A DNA stretch of 64,000 bases from IMG/VR virus record IMGVR_UViG_2895532408_000002, positions 1 to 64,000 of that record, one strand, 5' to 3'. The position numbers and the translations under genes were made by a program. The notes under the pieces are model-generated. The model made no database searches, was not told the origin of the DNA, and saw only the letters and a list, made by a program, of their open reading frames with translations. Origin of the DNA: a virus. Lineage: Duplodnaviria; Caudoviricetes. Below are positions 29,010 to 48,914 of the stretch, in pieces. How positions within the stretch are numbered: position 1 is the first letter of the stretch; every line of letters starts with the position of its first letter.

Positions 29010-29028
29010 CGTCAATTTCCTCAGTTAA

Positions 29029-30061: not shown

Positions 30062-30115
30062 CGTCAATTTCCAACAAGTTAATTAAAAAGGGGGGAGAAC
30101 ATTCCCCCCTAAGAT

Positions 30116-30307: not shown

Positions 30308-30309
30308 GA

Positions 30310-32312: not shown

Positions 32313-32381
32313 AATCGTCAATTTCCAAATTGTAAAAGTTAATTGAAGGGGGAGAACATTCCCCCTAGCGTTGGTTAGAGT

Positions 32382-32597
32382 TTAAAGGTTTTTGAAATAC
32401 TCCGATTGCTCTATCAAAACGTTAAGTTTTTTCTGGTCTTCAAAGTTTGGCAAGTCTACAGGGCAACCATCACAGTCTATCAATCTGAACTTGCCGTTCT
32501 TTTTGCTTAAGCCCCAAGACACTTTATCAATGTCAAACCAATCAATGGTATCGTCGTCTTGAGTGTAATGTTGCGTTTCAATATGTTTCACTTCCAT
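32382..32597 (-). CDS. Hypothetical protein
   Basis: Single ORF between two dyad repeats. Confidence 0.6.
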   Translation of the reverse strand: MEVKHIETQHYTQDDDTIDWFDIDKVSWGLSKKNGKFRLIDCDGCPVDLPNFEDQKKLNVLIEQSEYFKNL

Positions 32598-32648
32598 ACG
32601 AGTTCCTTTTGTAAAAGTTAATTGAAAGGGGAGAACATTCCCCCCTAG

Positions 32649-33800: not shown

Positions 33801-33803
33801 AAT

Positions 33804-34031
33804 TTAGTTCTCGTCTATAAAGTCGTCAGGGTCAGCGGTAATTTTCAAGTGAACTTGAACGCGCTTACCTTTGTGTTCAATCGTGGAGAGCCAAACTTCA
33901 ACGTCGGTACCCGTTTCATCAATGTAGTCTTGGGTCAACTCTCCGATCATTTGGTTGAAGTGAGAAGATTCCTCACAGATGATTTGCCCCAGAGTCACAT
34001 CATAACCAGGGTTTTCGCAATGGTTCTTCAT
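33804..34031 (-). CDS. Small acidic hypothetical protein
   Basis: Coupled ORF. Confidence 0.55.
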   Translation of the reverse strand: MKNHCENPGYDVTLGQIICEESSHFNQMIGELTQDYIDETGTDVEVWLSTIEHKGKRVQVHLKITADPDDFIDEN

Positions 34032-34831
34032 GCGGCCACCTGTTTAGTTCGGCCATACGTTTTATGGCGTAGTTCTCGATAACCGTGACTGCTCAAGATA
34101 TTTCTAGTCTCGGAAGTGATAGACCACGTAGAACAGAACTCAGTGCGTAGCCCGATACCTTGATAGTCTTTGCGCTGACCCGCCGTATTTATCATTCGGT
34201 CAACAACCAATAAGTCGTGGGGATATCCCTTCACGAACCATTCGATTTTATTGCCGAACTCGGTTAATACGTCTTCAAAAAACACCATACCCGTGTCGTA
34301 GGCCAGCGTGTCTTTGGCAATAACGAAACTATATAGCGCGGCAAGAAAGATATCGGCATTAGCAATATCGCCACCCCAACGCCAGTCATGGTCTGGATGC
34401 GTCGGCGCTCGAGACTGACTTAGAATTATTCGGTGAGGTTGTGCACTTAACATCAAGTCAGTTAAAGCTTTCGATAAACTCACACCGCGAGGGACAATAA
34501 ATTTCTTACTGCTTTGGTGTAGCTTTACACGCCACTTGTGAGCCGTGCGATTGCCTAAGTTGATAAGTTTTTCACTCATCATTTGTAACTTTTCTTCCCA
34601 GCTCAAAACTGAATACTGCTCGGAATACACACTTACCGCTTGCTTAAGATGAAAATCAAATAACTGGCGTAACTTGTCGTGAAGGTCTTCAACGGTACCG
34701 GTACCATCTGAGCCAAATCGAGAGGTGTTATCTTCTAAGAACTTTACGAAGCGTGGTTGTGTAATCGCGTCAGCAATTACAAATAGCATCGTGGCCGTAG
34801 CCTGTTTATTGATACGTTTAACATCAGTCAT
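34028..34831 (-). CDS. Hypothetical protein
   Basis: ATG after start motif and dyad. Confidence 0.65.
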   Translation of the reverse strand: MTDVKRINKQATATMLFVIADAITQPRFVKFLEDNTSRFGSDGTGTVEDLHDKLRQLFDFHLKQAVSVYSEQYSVLSWEEKLQMMSEKLINLGNRTAHKWRVKLHQSSKKFIVPRGVSLSKALTDLMLSAQPHRIILSQSRAPTHPDHDWRWGGDIANADIFLAALYSFVIAKDTLAYDTGMVFFEDVLTEFGNKIEWFVKGYPHDLLVVDRMINTAGQRKDYQGIGLRTEFCSTWSITSETRNILSSHGYRELRHKTYGRTKQVAA

Positions 34832-34890
34832 GATCGTCAATTTCCAATTTTAAAAGTTAATTAAGAGGGGGGAATATTCTCCCCCGAGCG

Positions 34891-35169
34891 TTACGACTTT
34901 TCAGGTCGTTCGAACTTCTCACCACAATAGCAGCAATGGCTTGCTATTATCGTTATTGAATCTTTCTTAAGATTCTTTTGCGGGGTACCGTCTCGCTTCA
35001 TAGGCCGATACTCGTAGTCAATTTTAGGACTGGTTGGAGCATACTGACCTTCCGCAAGCATATAAGCTCGGCCCTGCCACTCGGCTTTAAAGTCTTCCAC
35101 GTTGTCCGGCAATTGCGCTTTAATATGCTCGGTTACTTTTTCCATCGTTTCTTCAAAACAATTACACAT
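34891..35169 (-). CDS. Hypothetical protein with terminal Cys motifs
   Basis: MCNC...CCYCG. Confidence 0.65.
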   Translation of the reverse strand: MCNCFEETMEKVTEHIKAQLPDNVEDFKAEWQGRAYMLAEGQYAPTSPKIDYEYRPMKRDGTPQKNLKKDSITIIASHCCYCGEKFERPEKS

Positions 35170-35180
35170 CGTCAATTTCC

Positions 35181-35423
35181 TTAGCTTGCAGCCCGTATCG
35201 GGCTATGGGGGGTTACTTCATACCAATCGTAGAGCTTCATAGTCTCTCGACTATAATCTCGCTCCCACGTTCGGCCATTTGCATCTACTAAACAGTAAGG
35301 CACTTTACGTCGCTCACACATGCTGTCGGCGTGCTCTTTTGCCTTATCCGGACTCGGAGCAAAGAACTCTTGAGTCCGTCGCTGATGTGTGAACCTGTCG
35401 TGATACACCAGTTCGTACTTCAC
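35181..35423 (-). CDS. Hypothetical protein
   Basis: GTG start with AAGGTGG upstream. Confidence 0.55.
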   Translation of the reverse strand: MKYELVYHDRFTHQRRTQEFFAPSPDKAKEHADSMCERRKVPYCLVDANGRTWERDYSRETMKLYDWYEVTPHSPIRAAS

Positions 35424-36323
35424 TTAAGCCACCTTGTCTAATTTTTTACTTTGTTGAAAATAGCGGTACAACTCGCCGCCTACCCATTCACCTTTCGGCA
35501 CTGACACACCATTACCAATCTGGCGATATGCTGACGTAGCCGATACTGGGAACGTAAACCAGTCTGGTACTCCCTGCAGCCTCGCATACTCACGCACCGA
35601 GTAAGGACGAACACCCATTGGGAATCGCTTGTCAGCAACCAAGCGCGTCGATTTGTCCTTGGCATAGTGAGCGACACACGTTGGCGCTAAATCCCCTTTG
35701 CTCGGGTCGCTGATTATTGGGAGGTCGCGGTACTTACCCGTCATTCTCGCTTTAATAGCACTAGGCAACGTTACTTCTGGGTCATGCTCGACAATCTCAG
35801 CCAGCGTCACCGGACGACAGTTCTTAGGGGGGCGAATTTCAAATGGTCTGCGGGTACCAAAAATAATCAGACGATCTCTTCGCTGGGGTAACCAATGCTG
35901 GGATTGCACCGGGCAAAAAACGTGAACATAGTAATCCGGCAACTTTGTCATAGCCTCCATTACTAGCGGGAACGCTCTCATTCCTGGCACATTTTCAACC
36001 ACGTAAGCATCGGGCTTGCGAATGGCCAAGTGACGCAAAGCATGAAGGAATAAATCGTCACCCGTTCTTACACCATGAATATCACCTATCGTGGAATATT
36101 TGGTGCAAGGGTAGGTGAAGATCATGGCATCACATTCTTCTTGGTTTAACACCAGCTCTTCGGTCAAGTCGCATTGTTTGATATGGTGGCCAATATTCTC
36201 GCGATACGTCTTAACAGCATCGTTATCAATTTCAAAAGCTTGGTTTATTGTTAAACCCGCGTTTATTAGCCCAATATCCATAAGGCCGGCACCACAAAAA
36301 TAACTGTTTACATTTATTTGCAT
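35424..36323 (-). CDS. DNA cytosine-C5 methyltransferase
   Basis: FCGAG, YPC, VENV, QRRDR, RLQG, QIGNGV. Confidence 0.93.
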   Translation of the reverse strand: MQINVNSYFCGAGLMDIGLINAGLTINQAFEIDNDAVKTYRENIGHHIKQCDLTEELVLNQEECDAMIFTYPCTKYSTIGDIHGVRTGDDLFLHALRHLAIRKPDAYVVENVPGMRAFPLVMEAMTKLPDYYVHVFCPVQSQHWLPQRRDRLIIFGTRRPFEIRPPKNCRPVTLAEIVEHDPEVTLPSAIKARMTGKYRDLPIISDPSKGDLAPTCVAHYAKDKSTRLVADKRFPMGVRPYSVREYARLQGVPDWFTFPVSATSAYRQIGNGVSVPKGEWVGGELYRYFQQSKKLDKVA

Positions 36324-36353
36324 CGTCAATTTCCAAATTTAAGAGTTAATTGT

Positions 36354-36899
36354 TTAACTACCGTCGCGATTCCTACGGCGCTTTCTCTCTTCGTACATAT
36401 ACTTCTTGGCTTGGGTGTCGCAGAACTCATTTACCGCTGAGCGTTTATTACCATACCCGCTATGGCCTTTAACCCACTTCCACTTTATGTACTTCAGTTT
36501 CAAGTGTTTTAAGTTCTCCGTCATAACTGGCTTTAGTTTTCTGATTGCTCCTTGGCAATCCGACTGGATTACTAAAACTTTCCCCTCCCAGCTAAAACCT
36601 GTGTTAAAGGATTTATTGCGTTGAGCGTGAGTTAAGGTGTGGATAACAGCACAAATCTCAGCTTCTTCGGCGTTATTACATTGGTCGAGAATCCCACCTA
36701 CACGAAAGGTTCTTGGCGGGAATCCCGCTTTTACCCAACCACCAAAACCCCCCGCTTTTGTTTTTGGGCAGAAACTAGCATCACAGAACAATGTGATAAA
36801 CAAGTCTCGGTTATCAGGCTCAGCCTCAGGGTGCGAAACAATCGGTTCGCTGCTTGTTACGTCCCAAGGTGGAGCGTCAGGATCAAAGTCTTTGAACAT
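36354..36899 (-). CDS. Ribonuclease HI-like protein
   Basis: FCDAS, AEICAV, QSDCQ, WVKGHSG...NEFCD. Confidence 0.85.
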   Translation of the reverse strand: MFKDFDPDAPPWDVTSSEPIVSHPEAEPDNRDLFITLFCDASFCPKTKAGGFGGWVKAGFPPRTFRVGGILDQCNNAEEAEICAVIHTLTHAQRNKSFNTGFSWEGKVLVIQSDCQGAIRKLKPVMTENLKHLKLKYIKWKWVKGHSGYGNKRSAVNEFCDTQAKKYMYEERKRRRNRDGS

Positions 36900-36905
36900 A
36901 ACTAA

Positions 36906-37832
36906 TTACTCGTGTCTAAATAAATCAGAACCCGACTTAACCGGTGCCTTATGGCTGGCACGGTGCTCAAGACTTGGGGCCGGTTCAATCGGCTCAAGTG
37001 ACATTACCTCGGCCAGCGTATCGCTATTTTCTCGAAGCCAATCCAAAAGAACCTCCCGTTTTCGAGCATCCGTTTGGGCTTTTGTTACACTCGGCGGCAT
37101 TAAGAGAGGTAAATCATCTACGTTAAGCTTTTCTAATACGTTATTCGCTCTAGCTATACTCATAACGTGTCCGAGTGAGTTTGCTATGGCCCCCTCGCTA
37201 TCATCATCTAATGGACCAACATTGAATTGTGGGGTAACTCGGTATTCACCATCAGGTATTAACCAACGGAACTCATCCCAAATTTCGAGAAACTGCTCGT
37301 CTAACTTAGCGACACGCTCATCTGTAGTTAAAGCTCTGGCCGGTTGAGACCCCGCACGATTAGTATATTGCTTTGGTTCAGGCTTACGTTTGAGAAAACC
37401 CGTACCCTTACCATTAATCACAAATATCTCGCTACGTACCATTGATAGAATATCTGAATAAGATTGAGCAAAATCATAACCACTAAAGGCTACAGGTTCA
37501 GAGCCCCCGTGTGTTAGGTGGGCATGATAAATGTAGTAACCCATTGTGATATCCGCCTCGTTGGTGAATGCTGTTAATATTGCATTCGCGGTCTCGGGGC
37601 ACATTAACGGGATAGTGGTAGAGAGACTATTCTGGGTTACTTCTTCAACCGCGATAAGTGTTTCGTAAGTGTTACTTGAAGCGGGTTTCTTCATTTCAAC
37701 TAACTTATTGTGAACTTGCTTTTCTTCGTAATCCGTCAAGTTACTCAGCGCTTCGCCAAGTTTCTCTTTGTTCCAAACAATCATTCGTGCCTCTACTACG
37801 ACACCGTTACCTAATTTAAAACCTTTTTTCAT
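36906..37832 (-). CDS. Hypothetical protein
   Basis: 308-aa ORF after start motif. Confidence 0.65.
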   Translation of the reverse strand: MKKGFKLGNGVVVEARMIVWNKEKLGEALSNLTDYEEKQVHNKLVEMKKPASSNTYETLIAVEEVTQNSLSTTIPLMCPETANAILTAFTNEADITMGYYIYHAHLTHGGSEPVAFSGYDFAQSYSDILSMVRSEIFVINGKGTGFLKRKPEPKQYTNRAGSQPARALTTDERVAKLDEQFLEIWDEFRWLIPDGEYRVTPQFNVGPLDDDSEGAIANSLGHVMSIARANNVLEKLNVDDLPLLMPPSVTKAQTDARKREVLLDWLRENSDTLAEVMSLEPIEPAPSLEHRASHKAPVKSGSDLFRHE

Positions 37833-37876
37833 CGTCAATTTCCTAAGTTAATTCCAAAGGGGGAGAACATTCCCCC

Positions 37877-38065
37877 CTAAATCACGCTAATTATTACTGC
37901 TTCACGGTTAAAACATTCCGAGCAGATATTCTTGCTCGAACCCATTAACTCAAGTTCCATTTCTATTGCACGGCGTCTCGAGTCACTTATCTTTGACTGG
38001 CACTTTGAACAGTGCGCGTCAGCCTTTGCAGGGGTGAGGTTTTGAAAGTTAGGGATACTACTCAC
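37877..38065 (-). CDS. TraR/DksA-type C4 zinc-finger protein
   Basis: CSKCQSKISDSRRRA...CSEC; AAGGAG RBS. Confidence 0.55.
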   Translation of the reverse strand: MSSIPNFQNLTPAKADAHCSKCQSKISDSRRRAIEMELELMGSSKNICSECFNREAVIISVI

Positions 38066-38089
38066 CGTGTTTTCTCCTTATCGTCAATT

Positions 38090-38350
38090 TTAATCGTTAG
38101 GTTCTAGGTCTAAATACAACTGCCAGCGGAAACCGGCCGACGTTACAAAAAATAGTAACTGGCCTGTTTGGTCGCAGTATTCTTTTCTACACGTTTCCTC
38201 AAAGGAATCGCACTGAATAAATGTCTTGTCGAACTCAGTAATAGCTTCAACGCGACCATGAAATATCTTCGGAGGCCAGAAACTAAATTCCTCGCTCTCC
38301 GGCTTACGACACACGATCATGTGGACGTTTTTATTCTTCTTCTTTGGCAT
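38090..38350 (-). CDS. Hypothetical protein
   Basis: Start MPKKKNK with GGAGG upstream. Confidence 0.55.
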   Translation of the reverse strand: MPKKKNKNVHMIVCRKPESEEFSFWPPKIFHGRVEAITEFDKTFIQCDSFEETCRKEYCDQTGQLLFFVTSAGFRWQLYLDLEPND

Positions 38351-39227
38351 CTTCAAAGTCCTCCAAACGTTCGTTCCAGTCTTCTTGATACAGCGAGAAG
38401 AAAATAGCTTGTAGTGCGGTATCATCCGCCAAGCAAACGGCTTTACCCGCACCCCCACAATCAGCATCTAGCGCTCGACTCAATTCATCGGCACAAGTGA
38501 TAGTGAGAACCGGCACTTGGTTTTCCGCTTCAGGATCATCAGGGTCAACCCACTCAAGGTTTTCCATGATGTAGTCGTGAATGCTGTACTTACCTTCTAC
38601 GAATTCCATCCAGCCCCATTCTTCATCCGCTAGAATATAGCGGATGGGCATACCTGAACTGACTCTTTCGGGGATGTTGTAGAATGCAATATCTTTATCC
38701 GCCAAAATCTCTTCGGAGGTGTAACGGTGTGGGTGTGGCTGTTTTCTTTCTTCCACCCCCAAAAGACCATCTAATAACAACGCCAGCACATGCTTCATAA
38801 ACTCCAACGCTTCAGACGCGGTAGGTGTTTCGGTTCGTAGATGCGTGAATCGTTGGGACTCCTGAGGTAGATACTTTTCCGCCGCATCCCTTCTTAGGTA
38901 TTGGGACCCCGCAACAATCGCATCCGCAACCTTACCTATTTCATGGTGTAAAGCCCAAAAAACTTGCTCGGCAGCTATTTGGCTTCGAAAATCCTCAGTA
39001 TCAATATCTAGGAACTTCTGAATTTCTGGTGTTACGGCCCCATAGCCAGCAACACAAGCCGGAGTACCACAGGTGTGAATATCTTTCGCTTCATTAGCCA
39101 CCATTTCACTGCCAAAATAAGAAATCATTTCCAAAGGCAACTCCGCCTCAACCACTTTCTCCATCGTTGTGATTAACATGCGGAGTAGGGGGAACCGAGG
39201 GTTTACTTTTGGTGGTTGGTTATTCAT
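38331..39227 (-). CDS. Hypothetical protein; N-terminal domain paralogous to 40287-40769
   Basis: DIHTCGTPACVAGYGAV motif shared. Confidence 0.7.
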   Translation of the reverse strand: MNNQPPKVNPRFPLLRMLITTMEKVVEAELPLEMISYFGSEMVANEAKDIHTCGTPACVAGYGAVTPEIQKFLDIDTEDFRSQIAAEQVFWALHHEIGKVADAIVAGSQYLRRDAAEKYLPQESQRFTHLRTETPTASEALEFMKHVLALLLDGLLGVEERKQPHPHRYTSEEILADKDIAFYNIPERVSSGMPIRYILADEEWGWMEFVEGKYSIHDYIMENLEWVDPDDPEAENQVPVLTITCADELSRALDADCGGAGKAVCLADDTALQAIFFSLYQEDWNERLEDFEDAKEEE

Positions 39228-39441
39228 CGTCAATTTCCTCAGCAATTTTTCCCGCTTCCAGTAACTTGCGGTACTTAAGTACGTTCTCGGGGGAATAGTC
39301 CATAAGACCAAAGGACTTTTTACCCGTTTCTAAACAAAGCGCAGGGCCGTAAACATTTAGGTTTATCGACTCAAGGTAAGTGATAACTTCAATAAGCGTC
39401 TTGTTTCTGGGACGCTTTATCTTCGAGGTGTCTTCACTCAT
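39220..39441 (-). CDS. Hypothetical protein
   Basis: Coupled ORF ending EEIDDE. Confidence 0.6.
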   Translation of the reverse strand: MSEDTSKIKRPRNKTLIEVITYLESINLNVYGPALCLETGKKSFGLMDYSPENVLKYRKLLEAGKIAEEIDDE

Positions 39442-39926
39442 TACTCTTCCCCTTCAGGTAAGGTTGCAAGGTAGGCCAAAACATCGTCTTGTAGAGCGAG
39501 AACGTTACGTATCTTCTGCTCGTTCGCTTCGATAAAGCCGGTTAAGTCGTTGGGTGTCTCCCCGCCAAAGTCCACGCGGCCATCACCCATACGGTCCTCG
39601 ATGTTCAGTTGCTTGCAGTAGCGTTCGGCTTGCTCGTAGGTGGTGCAGTCTGGAACGTGGGTTTGATCTTCCGTACAGACGTCAAACAGCACGCGAGGTT
39701 TGATAAAGAAGGGGCCTTCATCACATTCGATTTTGTGATCTTTAACTTCACCATGCACCACACCTGAGAATAACTGCTCACTTTCGTAGATTCGCTGGCA
39801 CTCTTGCTTTAGGGCATTTATCGTTTGCCTAGCGTCCTCTAGTTTCTTTTGCAACGACTCTATAACGTCCACTAGTTCGTCATTACGGAAGTTTTTCAAA
39901 TAGTTATTTCTGTCAATTTCACTCAT
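39441..39926 (-). CDS. Hypothetical protein
   Basis: Start MSEIDR after start motif. Confidence 0.6.
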   Translation of the reverse strand: MSEIDRNNYLKNFRNDELVDVIESLQKKLEDARQTINALKQECQRIYESEQLFSGVVHGEVKDHKIECDEGPFFIKPRVLFDVCTEDQTHVPDCTTYEQAERYCKQLNIEDRMGDGRVDFGGETPNDLTGFIEANEQKIRNVLALQDDVLAYLATLPEGEE

Positions 39927-40074
39927 CGTCAATTTCCTTAAAGTCACAATAAATTGGCCCTTCATCAGGAGCCATAAAGTCAATTTCTGGGTCGGTAGCA
40001 AACTCACAATGCTCAACCGATTTATACCCGTCACCTAGCATGGTGCCACCACACTTTTTGCACACTTGGCGCAT
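39919..40074 (-). CDS. 51-aa Cys-containing protein not in the ORF track (MRQVCKKCGG...KEIDDE)
   Basis: ATG directly after GGAGATTGACG; hand translation. Confidence 0.7.
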   Translation of the reverse strand: MRQVCKKCGGTMLGDGYKSVEHCEFATDPEIDFMAPDEGPIYCDFKEIDDE

Positions 40075-40114
40075 CGTCAATCTCCAAAAGAGGGGGGGAA
40101 TGTTCCCACCCTAG

Positions 40115-40294
40115 TTATCTAAAAAAGCTCACGTTCTGACAAAACGCATTTACCATTTTTAGGGTCTTGTCTGTGGCTACACTTTCTAACACTCGAATAG
40201 CGGCAATTACCCCACGCTTGCTGTCTTCAAATCGCAAGATATGAAGTATCTTTCCCGTATCCAGCTCCGAGATAACCCACATCGCCTCATTCAT
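40115..40294 (-). CDS. Hypothetical protein
   Basis: Coupled ORF. Confidence 0.5.
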   Translation of the reverse strand: MNEAMWVISELDTGKILHILRFEDSKRGVIAAIRVLESVATDKTLKMVNAFCQNVSFFR

Positions 40295-40769
40295 CTTCCG
40301 CTTCCTCACGTTTCCAGCGTTTTAGTTCACGCTCTTTGAAGGCCAGCACATGCTTCATATAAGTTAGGGCGTCCGACGCAGAGGGATTAGGCTTCGTTAT
40401 ATGATTAAATCCAAGTTCAGTTTCAGGTAGATAAAACCCTGCAAAAGTCCCTCGCTCTTCATAGTGGCTACCAATTATCGACCACGCTAAATCCCCAATT
40501 TCGTCAAGTAACGAATCACTTACGTGCTCAGCCGTTTCCCTCGCTCGGAAATAGGGCATATCAACCTCAAGGAATTTCTGAATTTTAGGATTAACCGCTC
40601 CATACCCAGCAACACACGCTGCCGTACCACAAGTGTGAATATCTACGGACTGGTCAGGGATTTCCTCATTCTCAAAATATGTTTGAATATCAAACGGCAG
40701 CTCAGACGCAACCACTTGTTCCATGGTCTCGATTAATAGTCTTAGCAGGGGAAAATTACCGGTACTCAT
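40287..40769 (-). CDS. Hypothetical protein, paralog of 38331-39227
   Basis: DIHTCGTAACVAGYGAV. Confidence 0.7.
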   Translation of the reverse strand: MSTGNFPLLRLLIETMEQVVASELPFDIQTYFENEEIPDQSVDIHTCGTAACVAGYGAVNPKIQKFLEVDMPYFRARETAEHVSDSLLDEIGDLAWSIIGSHYEERGTFAGFYLPETELGFNHITKPNPSASDALTYMKHVLAFKERELKRWKREEAEDE

Positions 40770-41254
40770 AAGTCACCTCTCTGGGCAAGCGAAACCGTCG
40801 GAGAACCCTTACCCTTACCCACCACCAAATGATCGAGTAACGGCACATCGATAGCCGACAGTGCTTGTTTAATCTCTTGTGTCAAACGAATATCCGCTGT
40901 GCTTGGCTCGGGATGGCCCGAAGGATGGTTATGCGCGATTATCAACGCCGCAGCATTCAGCTCTAAAACACGACGAATAATCTCACGAGGGTAAACCGAG
41001 GCCGAATTTATCGTACCTTCAAACATTATTTCACCCGCAATCAAACCGTGTTGAGCATCAAGGAACACGCAAAGAAAACGTTCGCGAGAACCCTCAGACA
41101 GTAGTAAGGAACAGTATTGCTTGCTGGCCTCAGCATTGGAGATTTTGTAGCGGCCATAATGGTTAGGCTGTTTCTCACGAATGATGTTTAGCGCTCGAGT
41201 GATAGCGCGTTTCTCAGTAGGGGTGTAAGGACCACAATCAGTTAGTTTAGTCAT
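40766..41254 (-). CDS. RadC-like JAB-domain protein
   Basis: ERFLCVFLD, GTIN...VYPREI, AHNHPSG..EPS.AD, LLDHLVVG. Confidence 0.92.
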   Translation of the reverse strand: MTKLTDCGPYTPTEKRAITRALNIIREKQPNHYGRYKISNAEASKQYCSLLLSEGSRERFLCVFLDAQHGLIAGEIMFEGTINSASVYPREIIRRVLELNAAALIIAHNHPSGHPEPSTADIRLTQEIKQALSAIDVPLLDHLVVGKGKGSPTVSLAQRGDL

Positions 41255-41327
41255 AGTCGTCAATTTCCAATTTTTAAAAAGTTAATTACCAAAGTTTTCG
41301 AACAAAGGGGGGAACATTCCCCCCCTC

Positions 41328-41822
41328 TTAGGCGACGTCTTTCGCTCTTACCTCGAGCATGGCCAGAAGATAATCGGCGTAGCTAATGAAATCATCCAGA
41401 TACTCACTACCCAGATACAACCACGCAAAACGTTTAATACTTGCAAGGTCAAGTCCTATACCTTCAGCCGAATACCGGCGAATGTGGATATTGACCCCCA
41501 AGAGCGAATCAATCAGCAACGAGCCCGCTTCAAAATCATCCAGCACAAGACTCACTTCTTCCACCAAGGCACAGATAAACGCGGATTCAATTAACATCCA
41601 GTGCGAATACTTCCAGCCCATCAAGGACCGAATCTTCGCATCACGGACACAGTAACCCTCAATCGTCGTGTGTGGTGTGTCTTGGGTTATCGGCTTGAGG
41701 TTCTGAATCGAGGCCCGAGAGCCTTCGTCTTCACCTTCGAGCGTCATAGCCAAACGACCACAGTTTCTCGCCGTATGTGCAACCGCAATCATACGCCGGA
41801 AAATAGGCAGATTTTTACTCAT
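41328..41822 (-). CDS. Hypothetical protein
   Basis: ATG after motif variant GAGATTGACGATT. Confidence 0.6.
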   Translation of the reverse strand: MSKNLPIFRRMIAVAHTARNCGRLAMTLEGEDEGSRASIQNLKPITQDTPHTTIEGYCVRDAKIRSLMGWKYSHWMLIESAFICALVEEVSLVLDDFEAGSLLIDSLLGVNIHIRRYSAEGIGLDLASIKRFAWLYLGSEYLDDFISYADYLLAMLEVRAKDVA

Positions 41823-41853
41823 AATCGTCAATCTCACTAATTGTCGGGTTAAA

Positions 41854-42240
41854 CTATGCCGATTCTCGGGCCGCAGCGCCACTACACGAAGACTTCTCGG
41901 TGAATTCGTCCTTACCTAGCACCTTCTCCATTGCACCCGCTGAGGATGCGATAGAGGCCGCGCATTCAACACCACAGTTAAAACCAAAATCCACGAGTTT
42001 TTCGACCACTGAAAAGTCCAGGCCGAGTTCTTGACTCAGCGCTTGAGTACGACGGTGCATTTCACCGAGGTCGTCCGTGCCCTTCAGAGCGTCGGATTTT
42101 CGGTAGAGACCAATGAGACATTCGATTTGCTTGGCTTTCATCTGCATGACAGCTTCAGCAATCTCACGCTGGGTTTGGCGCATGAGTTCACGAGGGGAGG
42201 GAGCAGTCTGGTTTACAGGCTGGGGGATGGTTGTAGTCAT
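41854..42240 (-). CDS. Hypothetical protein, first gene after the 42.3-kb promoter
   Basis: ATG after start motif. Confidence 0.65.
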   Translation of the reverse strand: MTTTIPQPVNQTAPSPRELMRQTQREIAEAVMQMKAKQIECLIGLYRKSDALKGTDDLGEMHRRTQALSQELGLDFSVVEKLVDFGFNCGVECAASIASSAGAMEKVLGKDEFTEKSSCSGAAARESA

Positions 42241-42301
42241 ATCGTCAATTTCCTAAGTTAATTAATCGGCTCACGCCGTAACACCCCGAAGGGCGGATTT
42301 A

Positions 42302-42330
42302 GTTATACAAGGGCAAAATGCCCCCGTCAA
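42302..42330 (-). promoter_or_regulatory. Sigma70-like promoter driving the leftward accessory operon
   Basis: TTGACG-17-TATAAC. Confidence 0.65.
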
Positions 42331-42828
42331 TTGCAATGGTCTGATTAGGACCAAAAACACAATTTTGGTGTGGTTCAAATTCACAGGGTTTTGTTGGTCG
42401 TTGCGACAGTGAGGACCACCCGTGAATTCAAAATCCCTGTCGCGCAAAAGTTACAGCTCGTCACGCAAAGGTCGTTTGCCAGATCACTGCGGCTTGCAGC
42501 AAGTCACAAGGAGGAACACGGACAACGCTTGTAAATAATCCTTGGCTACGAATTAAAACGAAAGCGAAGTTTTTAAAAGTATACTTCTTAAAAAATGTTC
42601 CCAGTAAAATATATAAATGTACATTTAATAACGAAAGTTTGTGGGAACATTTTTGTCACCGGCTCTGTAGGCCTTATCCACCACGGCATTGCGAGTAATA
42701 AATACCCTCACCGAAGTTACGCGTAACTGGTCAAATTTCGCACAGCTACAGGCCGCATTCTACCGTTCGAGCATTTCGCAAAAAACGCTGAGAAAGTTTA
42801 TGAGAACACAAAACCTAAGTTATTGAAT

Positions 42829-43137
42829 CTAGGCCCTTAAATTGGTCTTGTGTGTGACTTTTAAGGGTTCTGCACAGGTTACGTCAAAAAGTTTACGGGA
42901 ACAGGTGTTAACTGGCTCGGGAATGTCTGTTTTGGCCAGTCTAATTGTTGTGCTCATTTCGCAAACTAACAACATTTGGTGATGCTTTGCTACGCGCTCG
43001 GGGTCCAAATTACCTAGCTGTAAGAGTGTCACACCTTTCAATTCTAGCGTGCCAATCTCGTATTGTAGCGTGCCGTATTGGAGGACAACCACTGGCTTAG
43101 GCCAGCCAAAATATACCGAAACGTTATTAAATTTCAT
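42829..43137 (-). CDS. Hypothetical protein
   Basis: Start MKFNN after start motif. Confidence 0.55.
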   Translation of the reverse strand: MKFNNVSVYFGWPKPVVVLQYGTLQYEIGTLELKGVTLLQLGNLDPERVAKHHQMLLVCEMSTTIRLAKTDIPEPVNTCSRKLFDVTCAEPLKVTHKTNLRA

Positions 43138-43461
43138 CGTCAATTTCCTGTCAAAAAGTGTCCAAAATTGTCTCAAAATGGGGGAGAATGTTCCCCCCTT
43201 TAGGCTCTTAACCTATCTCAAAATGGGGGAGAATGTTCCCCCCCTTAGGCCCTAAAATCGGGCTCGGTTTTGAGGTTAAGGCAAATACCTGTGGCCTTAA
43301 ATTACTTTACACGACCCTTGTATAGGTCCTATATTCTCATGCGAGAAGCTTGGGGAGAGGGTTGAGGGTTGGAATCGGCCCTGCTCCTATTTCCGCGCTG
43401 TCAACACTTGATTCGAATTTTTCGATTCTTTTTATCGAACCAAAAACCACCAGCCTAGATT

Positions 43462-43722
43462 TTAGATTCTATTTTTTAGAATGAATCCGCCTTTCCACCA
43501 GCAAAAGCGCACTTCCACCAGCCGAAAATGACTTCTTCTATCGTGAGCTTCATCCCACAAACTGAAAATCGAGATCAAGAACAGCGGAATACTAGCGTAA
43601 CTAGGTACACCTATTAGGCCCAGGCCCTCGGCACTCGAAATGAGGACCGTGAACCCAGCCACCAGCGTGAGAAAGTGCACCATAAACGCAATAAATAAAG
43701 CTATATCTGTACGTTTAATCAT
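43462..43722 (-). CDS. Small two-TM membrane protein
   Basis: Two hydrophobic segments; motif variant GGAAATTGATGATG. Confidence 0.6.
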   Translation of the reverse strand: MIKRTDIALFIAFMVHFLTLVAGFTVLISSAEGLGLIGVPSYASIPLFLISIFSLWDEAHDRRSHFRLVEVRFCWWKGGFILKNRI

Positions 43723-43735
43723 CATCAATTTCCTT

Positions 43736-43918
43736 TTAGTTGAACAAGTGTGGTTCGGTAAAATATAAATCCCGAATATTCTCTTCAGTTAAGACTTTTA
43801 CGTGCTTTTTTAATTTAGAAAGTAGAATGGTTCGTGTGTATGGGCCATCGTGAATAACAAACCCTGCCCTTTGCTTACCATGCGGGCCCATGAGTAGCTT
43901 GCTTTGCACTGTAATCAT
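43736..43918 (-). CDS. Hypothetical protein
   Basis: Motif variant GGAAATTGATGATG plus dyad upstream. Confidence 0.6.
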   Translation of the reverse strand: MITVQSKLLMGPHGKQRAGFVIHDGPYTRTILLSKLKKHVKVLTEENIRDLYFTEPHLFN

Positions 43919-44150
43919 CATCAATTTCCTTGTATCTGGGGGGAATGTTCCCCCCTAAAAATCGCCGCGACAGTCACGGCCCTGTAGTTGCCCAAATTCC
44001 CTTCGCGCCAATTGCTATAACAATCCACCAGCCTAGACCCTAGAAACGAGGCCCTAGGCACGCAATACGCTAATAAAGAACCGCGTATACCCACCAGCAC
44101 GCACATCATGTATATGATGTAGGCACGCGCTTAATAGCTTCGCGAAAAGT

Positions 44151-44189
44151 AAAAAACCGATTAGTACTAGCCGTACTAATCGGTTTTTT
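44151..44189. terminator. Bidirectional intrinsic terminator
   Basis: AAAAAACCGATTAGTAC-TAGCC-GTACTAATCGGTTTTTT. Confidence 0.85.
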
Positions 44190-44231
44190 ATTTCTCGAAT
44201 TGAGGGGGGAATGTTCCCCCCCTTGGTCCGC

Positions 44232-44951
44232 TTACTTGGTCAATTGCTTTTCGATATCCTTTTGAATATCTAGCGTTAATGCAAGCATAGCTTTGGCAAC
44301 TTTTGCGCGGTGAGTCTTAGGTAAACCAGCCGCGTCTAGGGCCTCAAGTTGGTGATTGATCAATGCTTGAGTGTGATCCTCAAGCTTAGAAACTAGGGCC
44401 TGAACCGCACTTGTTACATTGTCGTCCGCTGCACGTTTAGCCGCGCCCCCCTCTTTATCCTTGCCTTTTACCGGCTCGTTTTTCGCGTCCTTGCTTGGCT
44501 TTTCTTCTTTCGCGTTAGCCGGTAAATAACCCTCTAAAAAGGCCAACCATTCCACGCGCCCTTGTGGAGCAGTACCCGCGCCGTAAATATCCGCGCTTAA
44601 TACCTTGTCACCTATTTGCGCAAAAGTGCCGTTTAATTCGATGGTTTTGATAGCGTCGAAAAACTTGGTTAGATATTGGCGGTTATCATTTACGAATTTC
44701 ACGTAAGTTTTCCAATAGCCTTTCGCCTGATTGTATAGGCGTGAGCTATCGCGGTTAGCTTTTGTACGTTGGTTAGCTGGCACGCCGTACAAGTCGCAAC
44801 AAAGCGCAATATTAGCGCCTTTTTCCATGTTGTGTGCTACGGCATAGCAAGCGATAGCCATTTTCACGGCTGGCACACGTAGATCATTCTTATCAGCAGT
44901 AACAAGCGCAGAAGCAAAAACAGAAGCGTTAAAAGTGGTGGTAGTAGTCAT
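44232..44951 (-). CDS. Hypothetical protein, monocistronic, probably very early
   Basis: Own candidate promoter, dyads on both sides, terminator downstream. Confidence 0.7.
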   Translation of the reverse strand: MTTTTTFNASVFASALVTADKNDLRVPAVKMAIACYAVAHNMEKGANIALCCDLYGVPANQRTKANRDSSRLYNQAKGYWKTYVKFVNDNRQYLTKFFDAIKTIELNGTFAQIGDKVLSADIYGAGTAPQGRVEWLAFLEGYLPANAKEEKPSKDAKNEPVKGKDKEGGAAKRAADDNVTSAVQALVSKLEDHTQALINHQLEALDAAGLPKTHRAKVAKAMLALTLDIQKDIEKQLTK

Positions 44952-45038
44952 TATCGTCAATCCTTAAAAGTTAATTTGTTGGTGGGGGAATGTTCCCCCC
45001 TCGAGTCAGTAAGTCGCTACTTGCCCCGAGTTGTATTC

Positions 45039-45068
45039 ACTATATAAGGGGGGGTAGATTTTATGCAA
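45039..45068 (-). promoter_or_regulatory. Candidate sigma70 promoter
   Basis: TTGCAT-18-TATAGT. Confidence 0.5.
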
Positions 45069-45146
45069 GAAAATGGGGCGATATAGTGGGGTGGTCATCA
45101 CACGCCACCTGAAAAATTTTTGGAATTTTGGAAGGTTATAGCTACT

Positions 45147-45257
45147 ACCCTCAACCCTAGAACCGAGAACCGAGAACCGAAATCCTCAACCCTCAACCCG
45201 AGAACCTAGACCCAAGACACAAAAACTCAATCCTAGACCCGAGAACCTAGACCCAAA
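45147..45257 (+). repeat. Array of about 16 degenerate heptamers (ACCCTCA/ACCCTAG/AACCGAG/AACCTAG/ACCCGAG)
   Basis: 7-bp periodicity over 111 bp with strong A/C strand bias. Confidence 0.8.
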
Positions 45258-45287
45258 AGTGAACCTTAGGAATATAAAACGAGTAGT

Positions 45288-45323
45288 AAAAGAAAACCCC
45301 GAGGGTTGGGCCACTCGGGGTTT
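45288..45323 (-). terminator. Intrinsic terminator with no convincing CDS upstream
   Basis: Minus strand AAACCCCGAG...CTCGGGGTTTTCTTTT. Confidence 0.75.
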
Positions 45324-45520
45324 GAGACGTTCAACGTAATCAGAGGTCGTTGTGCGTAGGATAAGCTTGAAACTAGGTATGTATACAGGAGTACAAAAGT
45401 TAGAACAGCTTTATCGTCAATTTCCAGATTGTAGGAGTGGTTAAGGTGTCGAGCCCCCACTCGGTTGATTAGCCTTTAAAGGTGTATGTGCATATACAAG
45501 ACTTTATTTGCTGTCAACGC
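45288..45520. ncRNA. Candidate regulatory small RNA carrying an orphan copy of the start motif (strand unresolved)
   Basis: TTATCGTCAATTTCCAGATTGTA at 45411-45433 with no start codon; flanking hairpins; terminator; TTGACA and TTGACC boxes on the minus strand. Confidence 0.45.
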
Positions 45521-45719
45521 CAACTAAAGTATAAAATTTTTCTTAAGTGGTCAAGCCAGTAAATAGGGGTTTACCCCCCGTATTCATAGGATAAGCTTAA
45601 AGCATTAAGCTCTTCAGCATGATTCTAAACACACAATTAAACTGTGTTTACCTAAGAATACAAATAGACAAACTGAAGCGATTTACACACACCCTAATTG
45701 TGTGAACGAAAAATTAAAA

Positions 45720-45751
45720 AAGCCAAAAATAATTTAAATTATTTTTGGCTT
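45720..45751 (-). terminator. 32-bp perfect palindrome, probable terminator of the primase gene
   Basis: AAGCCAAAAATAATTTAAATTATTTTTGGCTT followed by a T-run on the minus strand. Confidence 0.6.
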
Positions 45752-45798
45752 AATAAGGTTTTGATTGTTTAGTGTCCGGTTATTGGCCTATCCGTGGC

Positions 45799-48309
45799 CT
45801 ATCCGTGGCCGTTTAGATGAATGTCTAATCCGTAATATTGAATCACTAAACGGTTTTTTGAATCGCGTCCTACGACTTGGAGAAACTGGTATAACGTGCT
45901 CAGCTCTTTCGTTCTGCGATAGAATTCACCTTCATCTACGACAGCCCCGTTTTTAAACTCCCTCACAGAGGCAGCATACAAGGTATATAAATCTCTACCG
46001 GAAATAGACGGTAGTGCTTTTAGTTCTTCTAGCAGCTCTTCTTTAGGCAGCGATTTAAGGACCGCTATCATTGAATCATCAGAAAGCTCAATGTAGCCCG
46101 AGGCCTCAAAGAAGTAGCGAACGTTGTTATTCATCTGGCCGAGTTGCCGCACAAGCTCATGGTGTGAGTCTGGTAGCGTATAGTCTCTTTGATTCACCAA
46201 TCTCGGGTAAGCTTGCAAGGCCCACGAAATGATTTTGTCTTTTTCTTCCGCGACAATCTTATTGCCAATATCCAGTTCTTGTTTCCCTTTCGGGATGGGC
46301 TTGTTCGTATTAAGTATCAACCAACGACGAGTAAACCCCTCGGAGAAATCTTTTGTCTTCGGAAGATGATTTGAGGCAAACCAATGGGTGGCCATCGGTT
46401 GCAAAGTGTTATGTTGATTTATGTTTCGCTTCAAAGTGATTTCATTCCCATCGACGATATCTTTAAAGCGCTGGCTGTTAATCGGTTCGTTTTCAGAGAG
46501 TTCCCCGCACAGGTTCAACAGCTTGTTTGATAGTGCGGCCAGTGCGTCATTATCACCCCACTTGTTAGGCGGGAGCGAAACGCGCTTTTGAGGGGGGACA
46601 AGGCCACGGATGATATTTAGTATCTGGCTCTTACCCGACTTTGGGGTTCCGTGAAGTAAGATAGCCCGTTGAAAAAGAGTGCCGGTGTTGAAGAACGTTG
46701 CGGCCATGGCCTCTTGCAACGCCAGGATGTTATCGCTCTCTTCGTCGCTGGCCCAAATGTCCGTGATAAAGTTATAGAGCTTTTCAGGCGGGTAAATCTG
46801 TTCGGGGTCGAAAGTAAACGGAAGTGTGTATGTCAGCCCCATATCGGGGTCGTGTGGGAGTAGCTGAAGATGAGAGTTTACGAACCCGTTATTGAAGTTC
46901 ACCCCAACAGCATTGACGCGTCTAAGCGGCAGGGCCAGTTTGTTTTTGATGGCCATAATAATCGCTTTCGTGTTACGCGTACCTTTGTCTGTGAAATTCG
47001 ACGGGAAGTACCGGTCTATAATTTCGCTTATCTCATAATCCTCCACGGGAGCCCAATGTGTTCCAACCCAGCGACATAATCTATGTGGGTCAATGCCCGA
47101 ATCAAAACGATGTTCGGTTTGGCTAGATAGAAATTGTGTGAGGATAGTCACGATGGCCGGAAGGTCTATAACGCCACGCGCTTGTTTTCTTAAGCTGGTT
47201 ATTTGGCTATCCATCTTCGTCATGTTTAGCTTCATCCCAGACTGTCTAGAGATATATCGTTTAAGTTGGTCTATCTCTAGCTTTGTTACGGTGAAGGAAC
47301 GAGCGATTTCCTCCATGGCCGACTGGCAAGCGCTAAGCATTTGGGTTTCATTCCCGATGGCATCCGACATTTTATCGAAAACGAACTGTTGCAACCCTTG
47401 ATATGTATACTGAGCATCCTTTGAAGTGAAGGGAATGGCGTACCGGTCCTTCATACTGGCGCCAATATTGACGTCCCAGTGTGGCGGGAGGCGAAGATTG
47501 TAGTACATCCGAACTTGATGGATGAGTGAGTAAAAGGTTTGGAAATAGGCGTCTTTTTGATGATTTGGCGGTATTTCGTCAAAATTTTGCGAAAAACTGT
47601 TATAAAGCGCATCAATTTCCTGCAAAACAGGTAAAAGATAGGTGTTTTTGTCGCAATTTAGTAAAAAATCGTAGCAAAAATGCGTCAAGTAGGACCGCAT
47701 ATTTACGTCTAATTGGCCTAGCGTGTGTAATTTTGTCCTTGCTTCATGCTGATATTGCTCTTTTTGAAACTCGACCTCGGGCAAAATCTCCTGCAAGACG
47801 TCCATGATGTGATGCGGCTCGAATACCGGTAGGTTGTCTATTACGTCTTTTGTGGGTACCTGTGTGGGGGAAGTGAGTACCACAAACGTGTCTTCCGCAA
47901 GGAAGGAAAGCAAACTTCCCTCGAGGCCCGAGCCGTGAACGGTAAATGATTTTAAAGAGTCACTGCAGGGTGACGGGGCAGGGGCTTTAAAAATCATGTA
48001 ATGGTTGTTTGACTCGGAGACCAGCCAAAAACTTGATGGTAGCTTATGTGACAGTGAAAGCTTTAAATCGGATTGTTTATGATCGAGCCTAACCGCAACA
48101 AGACAAGATTCACTCTCGTCTTTTAAGGCCTGACCTAGGGCCACACCGCAAAGCTTATCCGCATGTGTCGCTTGCCAGTTCTTTTGGTGTAACTCTTGGG
48201 TCGCTTGCAGTATTTTATCACTTGGGATAGCTGGCAACTTTGACGTTTTAAATATTGGGATGGTTGGCACACCCACAGCAAATAAGGCTTTCGATAATAA
48301 ACTATACAT
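45799..48309 (-). CDS. P4/D5-family primase-helicase (SF3), N-terminal primase domain possibly degenerate
   Basis: VNFNNG, HGTPKSGKS, CGEL, FASNHLP, GFTRRW. Confidence 0.85.
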   Translation of the reverse strand: MYSLLSKALFAVGVPTIPIFKTSKLPAIPSDKILQATQELHQKNWQATHADKLCGVALGQALKDESESCLVAVRLDHKQSDLKLSLSHKLPSSFWLVSESNNHYMIFKAPAPSPCSDSLKSFTVHGSGLEGSLLSFLAEDTFVVLTSPTQVPTKDVIDNLPVFEPHHIMDVLQEILPEVEFQKEQYQHEARTKLHTLGQLDVNMRSYLTHFCYDFLLNCDKNTYLLPVLQEIDALYNSFSQNFDEIPPNHQKDAYFQTFYSLIHQVRMYYNLRLPPHWDVNIGASMKDRYAIPFTSKDAQYTYQGLQQFVFDKMSDAIGNETQMLSACQSAMEEIARSFTVTKLEIDQLKRYISRQSGMKLNMTKMDSQITSLRKQARGVIDLPAIVTILTQFLSSQTEHRFDSGIDPHRLCRWVGTHWAPVEDYEISEIIDRYFPSNFTDKGTRNTKAIIMAIKNKLALPLRRVNAVGVNFNNGFVNSHLQLLPHDPDMGLTYTLPFTFDPEQIYPPEKLYNFITDIWASDEESDNILALQEAMAATFFNTGTLFQRAILLHGTPKSGKSQILNIIRGLVPPQKRVSLPPNKWGDNDALAALSNKLLNLCGELSENEPINSQRFKDIVDGNEITLKRNINQHNTLQPMATHWFASNHLPKTKDFSEGFTRRWLILNTNKPIPKGKQELDIGNKIVAEEKDKIISWALQAYPRLVNQRDYTLPDSHHELVRQLGQMNNNVRYFFEASGYIELSDDSMIAVLKSLPKEELLEELKALPSISGRDLYTLYAASVREFKNGAVVDEGEFYRRTKELSTLYQFLQVVGRDSKNRLVIQYYGLDIHLNGHG

Positions 48310-48875: not shown

Positions 48876-48914
48876 AGGCGAAAAATAGACTAATTGACGA
48901 TAATTGGGGTAGCT

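Follow-up and report, generated by a model that had tools for sequence, protein, structure and literature searches.

Immediately downstream of the primase gene in a temperate, marine phage, the minus strand encodes a predicted non-coding RNA that is probably a target-mimic sponge, acting against an antisense small RNA (sRNA) directed at the starts of phage genes. The DNA is the first 64 kb, here called the window, of a 75,951-bp IMG/VR record that is classed as a provirus and is 94% complete. The predicted RNA (45288–45521, minus strand, termed sRNA-1) has a length of ∼230 nt, its 5′ end being placed from the −10 element and its 3′ end from the U-tract. It carries a copy of a short sequence tag that precedes the start codons of about one-third of the phage cistrons, and this copy lacks a start codon. 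The partner, a second sRNA gene located in the tail region of the same genome, carries the complement of the tag. The anatomy and conservation of both RNA genes, the lack of a conserved reading frame in sRNA-1, the complementarity between the RNAs and the three-way covariation of tag, antisense sRNA and start-less copy were computed here and are described below.

On the gene strand, the tag reads GGAAATTGACG followed by ATG after 0–3 nt; at the RNA level it is GGAAAUUGACG(0–3 nt)AUG. The genome contains 38 relaxed copies (GG[AT][AG]AT[TC]GA[CT]G), 35 of which are followed by an ATG within 0–3 nt. The first of the three exceptions is the copy within sRNA-1 (45415–45425, hereafter the orphan). 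A second lies out of frame inside the primase gene (47620), and the third, at 65791 and beyond the window, represents the opposite strand of the partner sRNA. An earlier note on this DNA had described the orphan as the sole intergenic copy without a gene start, which is correct within the window but not genome-wide. Searching the window for the 15-mer with up to three mismatches gave 47 matches, where 100 dinucleotide shuffles averaged 2.54 and never exceeded 7, and the orphan is the only match without a mismatch. For 103 greedily chosen open reading frames, the best match of the 11-mer before the start has a bimodal distribution, with 36 frames at 0–2 mismatches (25, 8 and 3) and the rest at 3–8, indicating that the tag marks a discrete class of about one-third of the cistrons, on both arms. 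Six copies have the variant GGAGATTGACG and two the variant GGAAATTGATGATG, as the note had listed, and its match of 20 of 21 nt between the orphan and two gene-start copies holds for each of them (23114 and 32326).

Some individual copies and their surroundings were also noted. In many intergenic gaps (27950–45000) gene cassettes open with a hairpin made of a G-run and a C-run (e.g. GGGGGAACATTCCCCC), which is followed by AATTAACTT(T)(T)AA and then by the tag; we take UUAACUUU to resemble the 'epsilon' enhancer of T7 gene 10. Pseudoalteromonas phage KB12-38, the closest cultured phage by terminase (51.6% amino-acid identity), analogously has GGGGTAACGTTACCCC plus TTAAACTAAAAC. The tag-like copy inside the primase-helicase gene (47610–47620, minus strand) reads GGAAATTGATG, and its ATG is out of frame with the gene. 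The presumed start region of the terminase gene (48889–48906) reads AATTGACGATAATTGGGG, without GGA, and an 18-bp helix (16 Watson–Crick pairs) reaching into the 5′ hairpin of the partner sRNA is possible.

The sequence at 45411–45433 is TTATCGTCAATTTCCAGATTGTA, which corresponds to TACAATCTGGAAATTGACGATAAAG on the gene (minus) strand and is not followed by an ATG, as described in the earlier note; the core 11-mer of the orphan continues into ATAAAGCTG, with no start codon. The unit in which it lies falls within the 840 bp that separate the primase gene from a gene of unassigned family encoding 239 aa. Its predicted promoter, TTGACC-15-TATACT (45554–45528, minus strand), had also been recognized in the note and is conserved in relatives. 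The −35-like hexamer TTGACC (45549–45554) is invariant in nine of nine aligned sequences, within an invariant TTGACCA, and the 15-nt spacer varies. The −10-like TATACT with the start region, TATACTTTAGT (45523–45533, minus strand), is likewise invariant in nine of nine sequences (alignment A1), and in the window's own genome (G000; G and L labels denote related records and loci) and in G006 it occurs only at the RNA locus. A TTGACA near 45515, listed in the note as a further signal, exists but is not conserved in the distant clade. The start-codon-less tag copy, UGGAAAUUGACGAUAA (45411–45426, minus strand), can form 16 Watson–Crick pairs with the linker of the partner sRNA. It is preceded by a hairpin GAGUGG...CCACUC (45435–45462, minus strand), and the unit ends in an intrinsic terminator (45288–45323, minus strand) with a stem of 10 GC-rich pairs, CCCCGAGUGG/CCCUCGGGG, and the tail UUUUCUUUU. 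In DNA the terminator hairpin reads CCCCGAGTGG/CCCTCGGGG at 45297–45320, then TTTTCTTTT. The two flanking hairpins and the U-tract terminator at 45288 had thus been correctly seen in the note.

Double changes keep the terminator stem paired, with compensatory changes on both sides at pairs 208/227 and 209/226 (C-G to U-A; G-C to C-G). At the position of the 45435–45462 hairpin, relatives have a different hairpin (GGGAGC/GCUCC or CCCC/GGGG), which was not counted as covariation because it is not alignable among them. Single sequences fold slightly to distinctly more stably than their shuffles, with z-scores of −2.0, −2.3 and −5.6. On the gene strand, the alignment runs from the primase-operon terminator through two CACA-N7-TGTG dyads to TTGACCA, a variable 14 nt and TATACTTTAGT; then come a variable 5′ part with the clade-specific hairpin, the ACAATyTGGAAATTGACGA block, a 3′ domain, GTCTCAAACCC and the GC-rich hairpin with TTTTCTTTT. 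For the L005 and L007 clades, the predicted unit lengths are ∼200 and ∼180 nt, respectively. Since the primase operon is closed by its own terminator (45720–45751, minus strand; a 14-pair stem, then TTTTAATTTT), the RNA unit is set apart from the upstream operon. No Rfam match at gathering score was found in the window, and a permissive Rfam search of 44950–45810 gave only a chance CRISPR-DR8 match on the terminator, scoring 18.6 bits where the gathering score is 39 (E 0.46). A tRNA or a known RNA family was rejected.

Two short sequences of the unit were observed in addition. The 12-mer AAGCTTATCCTA occurs twice on the minus strand, just upstream of the promoter (45598–45587) and inside the RNA (45368–45357), and the homologous RNA of G006 contains a near copy, AAGCTTATTCTA. 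At the 5′ end of sRNA-1 (45514–45521, minus strand), GGCGUUGA has eight Watson–Crick pairs to nt 45–52 of the partner sRNA and would be a second contact; this contact is not conserved in the L007 clade, and the same sequence has an alternative intramolecular pairing with UCAAC(G)C.

The conservation of the unit was assessed with eight related IMG/VR loci (primase 72–93% identical) and 10 metagenome loci covering the region, which represent 15 distinct records and, with the window included, 10 distinct RNA sequences. The orphan is present without an ATG in all 15 records (8/8 IMG/VR loci and 10/10 metagenome loci). The earlier note had raised the possibility that relatives have a reading frame at this place, or that they keep the start motif and lack the orphan; neither was found in any of them. 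When the window is compared with L007, the clade of the set furthest from it, the motif stands out as an island with 17 of 19 nt identical, the flanks having 18/88 and 31/84 identical positions (20–37%). There is no conserved reading frame, and ATG, GTG and TTG are absent at the usual distance in the 10 distinct sequences. Insertions and deletions of 1 and 2 nt shift the frame between clades, so that conserved 3′ nucleotides are read in different frames, and open frames continue through the terminator. The window itself has a 64-codon frame, for which no Pfam or PHROG match was found. A pattern scan of IMG/VR with CCAAAAATTTTTCAGGTGG returned the eight known relatives and one chance match in a coding region (L018); a scan with the promoter pattern returned the known relatives and 11 chance matches, none of which has a tag copy. 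On sequence grounds we interpret the locus as a transcription unit rather than a relic. The 200–230-nt minus-strand sponge RNA suggested in the note fits the conserved promoter and terminator, the lack of a frame and the motif island.

The partner sRNA candidate is ∼78 nt long and is encoded between two tail genes at genome positions 65751–65829 (plus strand), outside the window. Its gene consists, in order, of a TTGACA-17-TAGTAT promoter (65716–65744), the anti-tag UUAUCGUCAAUUUCC (65777–65791, plus strand) and an 11-pair hairpin with a U-rich tail. The predicted fold comprises a 5′ hairpin, an open linker and the terminator, and the anti-tag is unpaired with a probability of 0.94–0.96 in G000–G003. 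The locus was found in 5/5 related records, and the terminator shows a compensatory change (CCUCAGC/GCUGGGG to CCCUAGC/GCUAGGG). RNAduplex energies for full-length RNAs were uninformative (means of −29.5 for tagged genes, −23.4 for other genes and −18.7 for the shuffled sRNA, with overlapping ranges), and helix counts against the unpaired linker were therefore used instead. At 32 of 36 tagged starts, the linker can form contiguous helices of 14–19 bp that lie over the Shine–Dalgarno (SD) sequence and the AUG. Most of 67 untagged starts have at most 8 bp and two reach 14 bp; the untagged starts with the longest helices (18, 14, 13, 12 and 12 bp) contain partial tags. With sRNA-1, the linker can form 16 Watson–Crick pairs in the window's genome; the number rises to 19 for the clades of L004, L006 and L011 and falls to 12 for that of L007 and L008.

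The partner sRNA gene (65716–65831 of G000, 517–632 of L044) is followed by an inverted repeat, TTGAAAAATATTCAA, a second −10-like TATACT and a tagged tail-gene start. The fold suggests a possible role in cis, in which the anti-tag, when part of a read-through late mRNA, could fold back on the neighbouring tagged tail-gene start. The spacer of the partner promoter contains a half-dyad, GACAATAAAATTGTG (65718–65732), which is not conserved in the L007 clade.

Comparison of clades suggests that the tag, the antisense sRNA and the orphan change together, by a U-A to C-G exchange, in two lineages. In the L007/L008 clade the start-less copy reads GGAAAUCGACGA and the sRNA CGUCGAUUUCC, which amounts to this exchange, and the L007 copy can form at most 7 bp with the window's sRNA. 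The gene-start tags follow. With A in the sRNA, C never occupies the variable tag position (0/38 copies in G000, 0/35 in G001 and none in G002 and G003); with G in the sRNA, able to pair with either C or U, it does so in 11/29 copies of G004 and 10/23 of G005. Fisher's test for 0/73 against 21/52 gives P = 5e-10, with counts that include the start-less copy and the sRNA complement and are not phylogenetically independent.

A similar arrangement was found in more distant lineages, in which the primases (G006 and G012 lineages) are 33–35% identical to that of the window. G006 (terminase 59% and primase 34% identical) encodes a ProQ-like protein, and its tags share ATTGACGATGA at a variable distance from the SD sequence. 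Its antisense sRNA has the same position among the tail genes and carries the core UCUCAUCGUCAAUUU, shifted onto the AUG. The post-primase unit of G006 keeps TATACTTTAG, AAGCTTATYCTA and GGGTTTTCTTTT, each of which is found only at this locus in G000 and G006. Since MAFFT left the TATACTTTAGT of G006 out of register with the other sequences, the homology of the locus is based on synteny and on these three locus-unique signatures. Instead of one tag copy, the G006 unit has four tandem 30-nt repeats with GACG(A/G)UGAG or UGACGAUGAG, which give 9, 9, 10 and 10 bp with the sRNA core and are not preceded by GGA. In G012 (primase 35% identical) the tags read AGGAATCGACGATG (short form AATCGACGATG), the sRNA core AUCAUCGUCGAUUUAU (short form AUCAUCGUCGAUU) lies between a 5′ hairpin and a terminator, and the terminated post-primase unit carries UCGACGAUGA, with 10 Watson–Crick pairs to the sRNA and no SD sequence. 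G011, a 17-kb fragment that does not span the sRNA region, has two SD-less copies in its terminated post-primase unit. An exact search for TATACTTTAGT in G011–G013 gave no match. The copies of G006, G011 and G012 thus keep the AUG and lack GGA, whereas the window copy keeps GGA and lacks the AUG. Across the lineages, conservation concerns the stretch that can pair with the cognate antisense RNA and not the capacity for initiation, which favours pairing and argues against a ribosome decoy or a relic.

In KB12-38, no primase homologue was found. Its tag is GGATTGAC, present in 34 copies, one of which is the opposite strand of its sRNA gene; the sRNA lies at the tail position and carries AUAUUGUCAAUCCAAAUAG. 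The best non-self match of this sRNA is a start-less copy of 22 bp in an mRNA leader. In three records with terminases 43–50% identical to that of the window (G007, G009 and G010), neither a ProQ match nor such a tag was found; a local leader motif of G007, the only one of them examined in this respect, has no antisense copy that we could find. Two leaders deserve mention on their own account. In the published KB12-38 record (MF098558.1; L051 and L052; 41330–41570 and 13780–13905), the antisense sRNA region and the leader are both unannotated, and in the leader the gene at 41568 has its real tagged start after the start-less 22-bp copy. In the G006 leader (43840–43990), the four target copies have no SD sequence and are interspersed with GTGTGACACC repeats, also four in number, and one of the copies is a perfect 17-bp match to the sRNA.

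A candidate RNA chaperone is encoded by the phage itself. The gene at 5400–5906 (minus strand) specifies a ProQ/FinO-domain protein (PF04352, E 5.4e-12, 46.1 bits against a cut-off of 27). The gene was found in four of five related records searched, the record without it being 81% complete; it is present in G000, G001, G002, G004 and G006, is annotated in KB12-38 and is absent from G007–G010, of which G007, G009 and G010 were covered by the tag comparison. Proteins of the ProQ/FinO family bind terminator hairpins and 3′ tails, according to a review (PMC9977716). sRNA-1 is predicted to end in this kind of feature, a terminator hairpin with the U-tail UUUUCUUUU, and might be bound in the same way.

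Upstream of the sRNA-1 promoter are two CACA-N7-TGTG dyads (45632–45646 and 45688–45702), which could be operators held in common with the region of the HTH gene described next; the first overlaps a promoter-like site (45650–45622, minus strand). Dyads of this form are also found at 25594, beside a helix-turn-helix (HTH) gene (25724–26044), at 42358 and at 22927.

From these sequence features, a mechanism can be proposed. The antisense sRNA would cover the SD sequence and the AUG of tagged mRNAs and thereby block ribosome binding. sRNA-1, which carries the tag without the ability to start translation, would pair with the antisense sRNA and titrate it off the mRNAs, and such titration could make translation of the lytic programme behave as a threshold switch. 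The ProQ/FinO-family protein of the phage would be the probable matchmaker and may promote or stabilize the pairing. Since the dyads upstream of sRNA-1 resemble the dyad beside the HTH gene at 25594, we suggest that sRNA-1 is perhaps induced together with the early genes, lifting a block held by the antisense sRNA in the lysogen. That both RNAs are produced, and when, that pairing blocks translation and that sRNA-1 relieves the block are all read from the DNA and from comparison of relatives. A broader scheme, which we put forward only tentatively, is that of a three-part RNA code governing most of the lytic programme, with a tag on about one-third of the cistrons, an antisense RNA that masks it and a decoy that unmasks it, assisted by ProQ/FinO. 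In this scheme the RNA genes would possibly be wired to the lysis–lysogeny repressor through the CACA-N7-TGTG operators, and related phages might form RNA-based immunity groups, since tag, antisense RNA and decoy change together between clades.

A number of observations weigh against a sponge function of sRNA-1. The promoter has an odd spacer of 15 nt and was not called by the consensus scan; the sigma-70 scan accepts only spacers of 16–18 nt and passed over TTGACC-15-TATACT for this reason. Within the RNA, the motif is unpaired with a moderate probability of 0.49–0.60, compared with 0.42–0.46 for the whole RNA. Its 16 pairs to the antisense sRNA are not the longest match, since four gene starts have 17–18 and the orphan ranks approximately 6th to 11th among the 38 sense-strand sites; the L007 clade has a helix of just 12 bp, exceeded at many gene starts. 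With a single site per RNA, sponging would call for a high abundance. The covariation comes from few independent clades with phylogenetically non-independent T/C counts, and the A-to-G change in GGAG also improves the SD sequence. The four 30-nt repeats of G006 form a 22-codon frame without an SD sequence and the AUG-bearing frames of G011 and G012 also lack one, so that small peptides are possible. Finally, the sRNA offers no complement to the invariant ACAAU just 5′ of the motif, and the conserved 3′ domain (AAGCUUAUCCUA ... GUCUCAAACCC) is unexplained by pairing; both point to some further function or factor.

This further conservation bears on an alternative that we consider rather unlikely but worth attention, namely that sRNA-1 is a regulated target with a job of its own, for example as the transcript of an origin, as the precursor of a primer, or as an attenuator or leader of the downstream early operon, and that the motif is the docking site through which the antisense sRNA controls it. 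RNA I/RNA II control of ColE1 priming and control by P4 CI and seqA–seqC would be parallels. The position of the unit fits such a role, directly after the primase-helicase gene and followed by a repeat array (45147–45258) and a near-invariant block, and this order of RNA, repeats and conserved block is kept in G006, G011 and G012; the 3′ domain is conserved beyond the needs of pairing, and start-less copies occur in mRNA leaders, too, in KB12-38 and G006. However, a strong terminator (10 GC-rich pairs and UUUUCUUUU) stands between the RNA and what follows it, the repeats and the next operon, and the number of sites differs by lineage (one or four), as is typical of titration. Clearly less probable is a decoy that engages the ribosome or a tag-reading protein independently of the antisense sRNA, for which a T4 RegA-like translational repressor or a CsrA/CsrB-like pair would be analogues. 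It would account for the GGA kept in the copy of the window's clade, for the extended ACAAU context, which this copy shares with several real starts and which is not complementary to the sRNA, and for a tag spacer at gene starts that is conserved beyond SD needs. Yet the G006, G011 and G012 RNAs keep only the stretch covered by the cognate sRNA and no GGA, the window RNA has a single GGA site, unlike the multi-site sponges of the CsrB type, and covariation with the sRNA accounts for the conserved positions.

The site could also act as DNA, as an operator for a phage DNA-binding protein. Asymmetric sites are known from Cluster A mycobacteriophages, whose stoperators are mentioned in a paper on mycobacteriophages (PMC3203893), and the present motif is asymmetric, has a single orientation relative to transcription, contains TTGAC and is located ∼100 bp downstream of the promoter. 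A fixed gap of 0–3 nt to the ATG in 35 of 38 copies points instead to a role at the RNA level, and the existence of a complementary sRNA with compensatory changes, together with the tolerance of only wobble-compatible states, makes a DNA site very unlikely. We regard a decayed gene start, or a tiny or unconventional reading frame without present function, as more improbable still. The 64-codon frame of the window (45266–45460, GTG start) does span the motif, but it is unconserved and its translation has no Pfam or PHROG match; the start codon is absent at the usual place in 10 of 10 distinct sequences, the motif is conserved far above its flanks and the unit stays non-coding in lineages with primases only 33–35% identical. 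Hardly any weight is left for an antisense sRNA made from the plus strand of the orphan locus, which the earlier note had offered as its other inference. The plus strand of this locus does read UUAUCGUCAAUUUCC. In a scan of 44900–45900, no plus-strand promoter-like or terminator-like site was found, the hairpin is followed on the plus strand only by TTTGAG, and the conserved signals are all on the minus strand. What survives of that inference is the antisense sRNA itself, whose dedicated gene sits elsewhere in the genome, at 65751–65829, and combines a canonical promoter and a terminator with an open linker.

Among known systems, AgvB and AsxR and the FinO-family pairs such as RocR/RocC appear closest in function. 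FinP/FinO, RocR/RocC and the plasmid mimic RocRp represent FinO/ProQ chaperones with dedicated sRNAs, and in these systems (PMC9977716) a mobile element encodes a FinO-domain protein together with structured, terminator-ending sRNAs, as here. RocR blocks the translation of several mRNAs in trans, and RocRp imitates another RNA to enter the circuit (PMC9977716). RocR has four targets and RocRp mimics the regulator, whereas here the tag extends over one-third of the phage genome and the second RNA would mimic the target. AgvB and AsxR are prophage-encoded anti-sRNAs of enterohaemorrhagic Escherichia coli (Tree et al. 2014, PMC4104026); like sRNA-1, they are small, phage-encoded and equipped with a terminator, and each reproduces a sequence targeted in mRNAs. 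AgvB is 51–60 nt long, Hfq-dependent and directed against a host core-genome sRNA through a 7-nt consensus. By comparison, the RNA described here is ∼230 nt long, its partner would be the phage's own sRNA, it mimics the start tag of ∼35 phage genes and its candidate chaperone is of the ProQ/FinO type. AgvB and AsxR have no sequence relationship to it (no Rfam match).

P4 CI and P22 sar are antisense immunity RNAs, as is c4, and we know of no separate decoy RNA gene for any of the three. The c4 RNA of the temperate phages P1 and P7 (PMC12197685) exemplifies the likeness to the present case, in that a phage RNA pairs near the ribosome-binding site of a phage mRNA and blocks translation in the control of lysogeny or immunity. 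These immunity RNAs act at one or a few sites in one operon, and c4 and CI are processed from the transcript that they control. In contrast, each of the two RNAs described here has a predicted promoter and terminator of its own, and targets are scattered across both arms of the genome. Titration is the feature shared with SroC, the ChiX decoy, 3′ETS-leuZ and CsrB/RsmZ, in which an RNA with binding sites competes with mRNAs for a regulator, and the four tandem sites of G006 resemble this class. Bacterial sponges are mostly processed fragments or host RNAs, and those of the CsrB type bind a protein via many GGA loops. Unlike CsrB/RsmZ, the window RNA has one tag copy and would pair with RNA, and its distant homologues have no GGA.

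The closest described class of motif appears to be the start-associated sequence (SAS) of Cluster K mycobacteriophages (consensus GGGATAGGAGCCC, 13 bp, 3–7 bp before start codons; Pope et al. 2011, PMC3203893). Both motifs are asymmetric, ∼13 bp long, include the SD sequence and stand a few bases before the starts (mostly ATG) of many genes, and in both, pairing with 16S rRNA is impossible for the conserved positions. They are alike only in kind: sequence, host and phage group differ, and SAS occurs solely in the non-structural genome half. Neither an antisense nor a decoy RNA has been described for SAS, and the authors left open whether SAS is read by a phage RNA or a protein. Four Cluster K mycobacteriophages each have a single SAS that faces the other way and has no tie to a gene start (PMC3203893).

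The remaining features of the locus and of the genome are as follows. The primase-helicase gene directly upstream of the RNA unit (45799–48309, minus strand; DUF5906, E 5e-11; PHROG DNA primase families, ∼E 5e-38) served as the synteny anchor. Directly after the sRNA-1 terminator is an array of ∼7-nt repeats (GGTTCTC, GGGTCTA, GGGTTGA; 45147–45258), G/T-rich on the gene strand, in place of which relatives including G006, G011 and G012 have arrays that differ in unit and length; the array may serve as an origin or bind proteins in some other capacity. Next comes a block of ∼140 nt (44990–45135; gene strand CCAAAATTCCAAAAATTTTTCAGGTGG ... TTTTCTTGCATAAAATC.ACCCCCCCTTATATAGTGAAT) that is near-invariant even in the clade with a 72%-identical primase. 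The block has no strong sigma-70 match and no family match, and is probably a control region of the leftward early operon. The genome also encodes a tyrosine integrase (PF00589, 103–627), an HTH protein that scores below the Pfam cut-off, and DNA polymerase A, ligase, helicases and a Herpes_ori_bp-like protein for replication. The head and tail arm runs rightward, with the large terminase at ∼48.9 kb as its first gene.

The host is probably a marine gammaproteobacterium. A scan of species genomes gave a single match, a 3-kb contig of an Alteromonadaceae metagenome-assembled genome with a fragment of the primase N-terminus (93% identical). No nucleotide match was found among public phage records, either for 44000–47000 in near mode or for 44900–45800 in distant mode. 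A terminase-profile scan led to 30 loci, and a single-protein scan with the tail gene adjoining the partner sRNA returned close relatives only.

Literature searches, at the level of titles, summaries and passages, found no description of a phage sRNA directed against a shared start tag, nor of a decoy for such an sRNA. If our reading of sRNA-1 is correct, the translation of dozens of genes would be gated by one pair of titrating RNAs, instead of or on top of protein repressors, in a switch that is simple, ultrasensitive and evolvable. The U-A to C-G covariation provides ready-made compensatory mutants, and tag, anti-tag and decoy could together serve as a portable regulator for synthetic biology. 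Such a pair would also be a candidate answer to the question, left open by Pope et al. (2011), of what reads start-associated motifs in phages, and it would give a role to phage-borne ProQ/FinO genes, whose function has been unclear.

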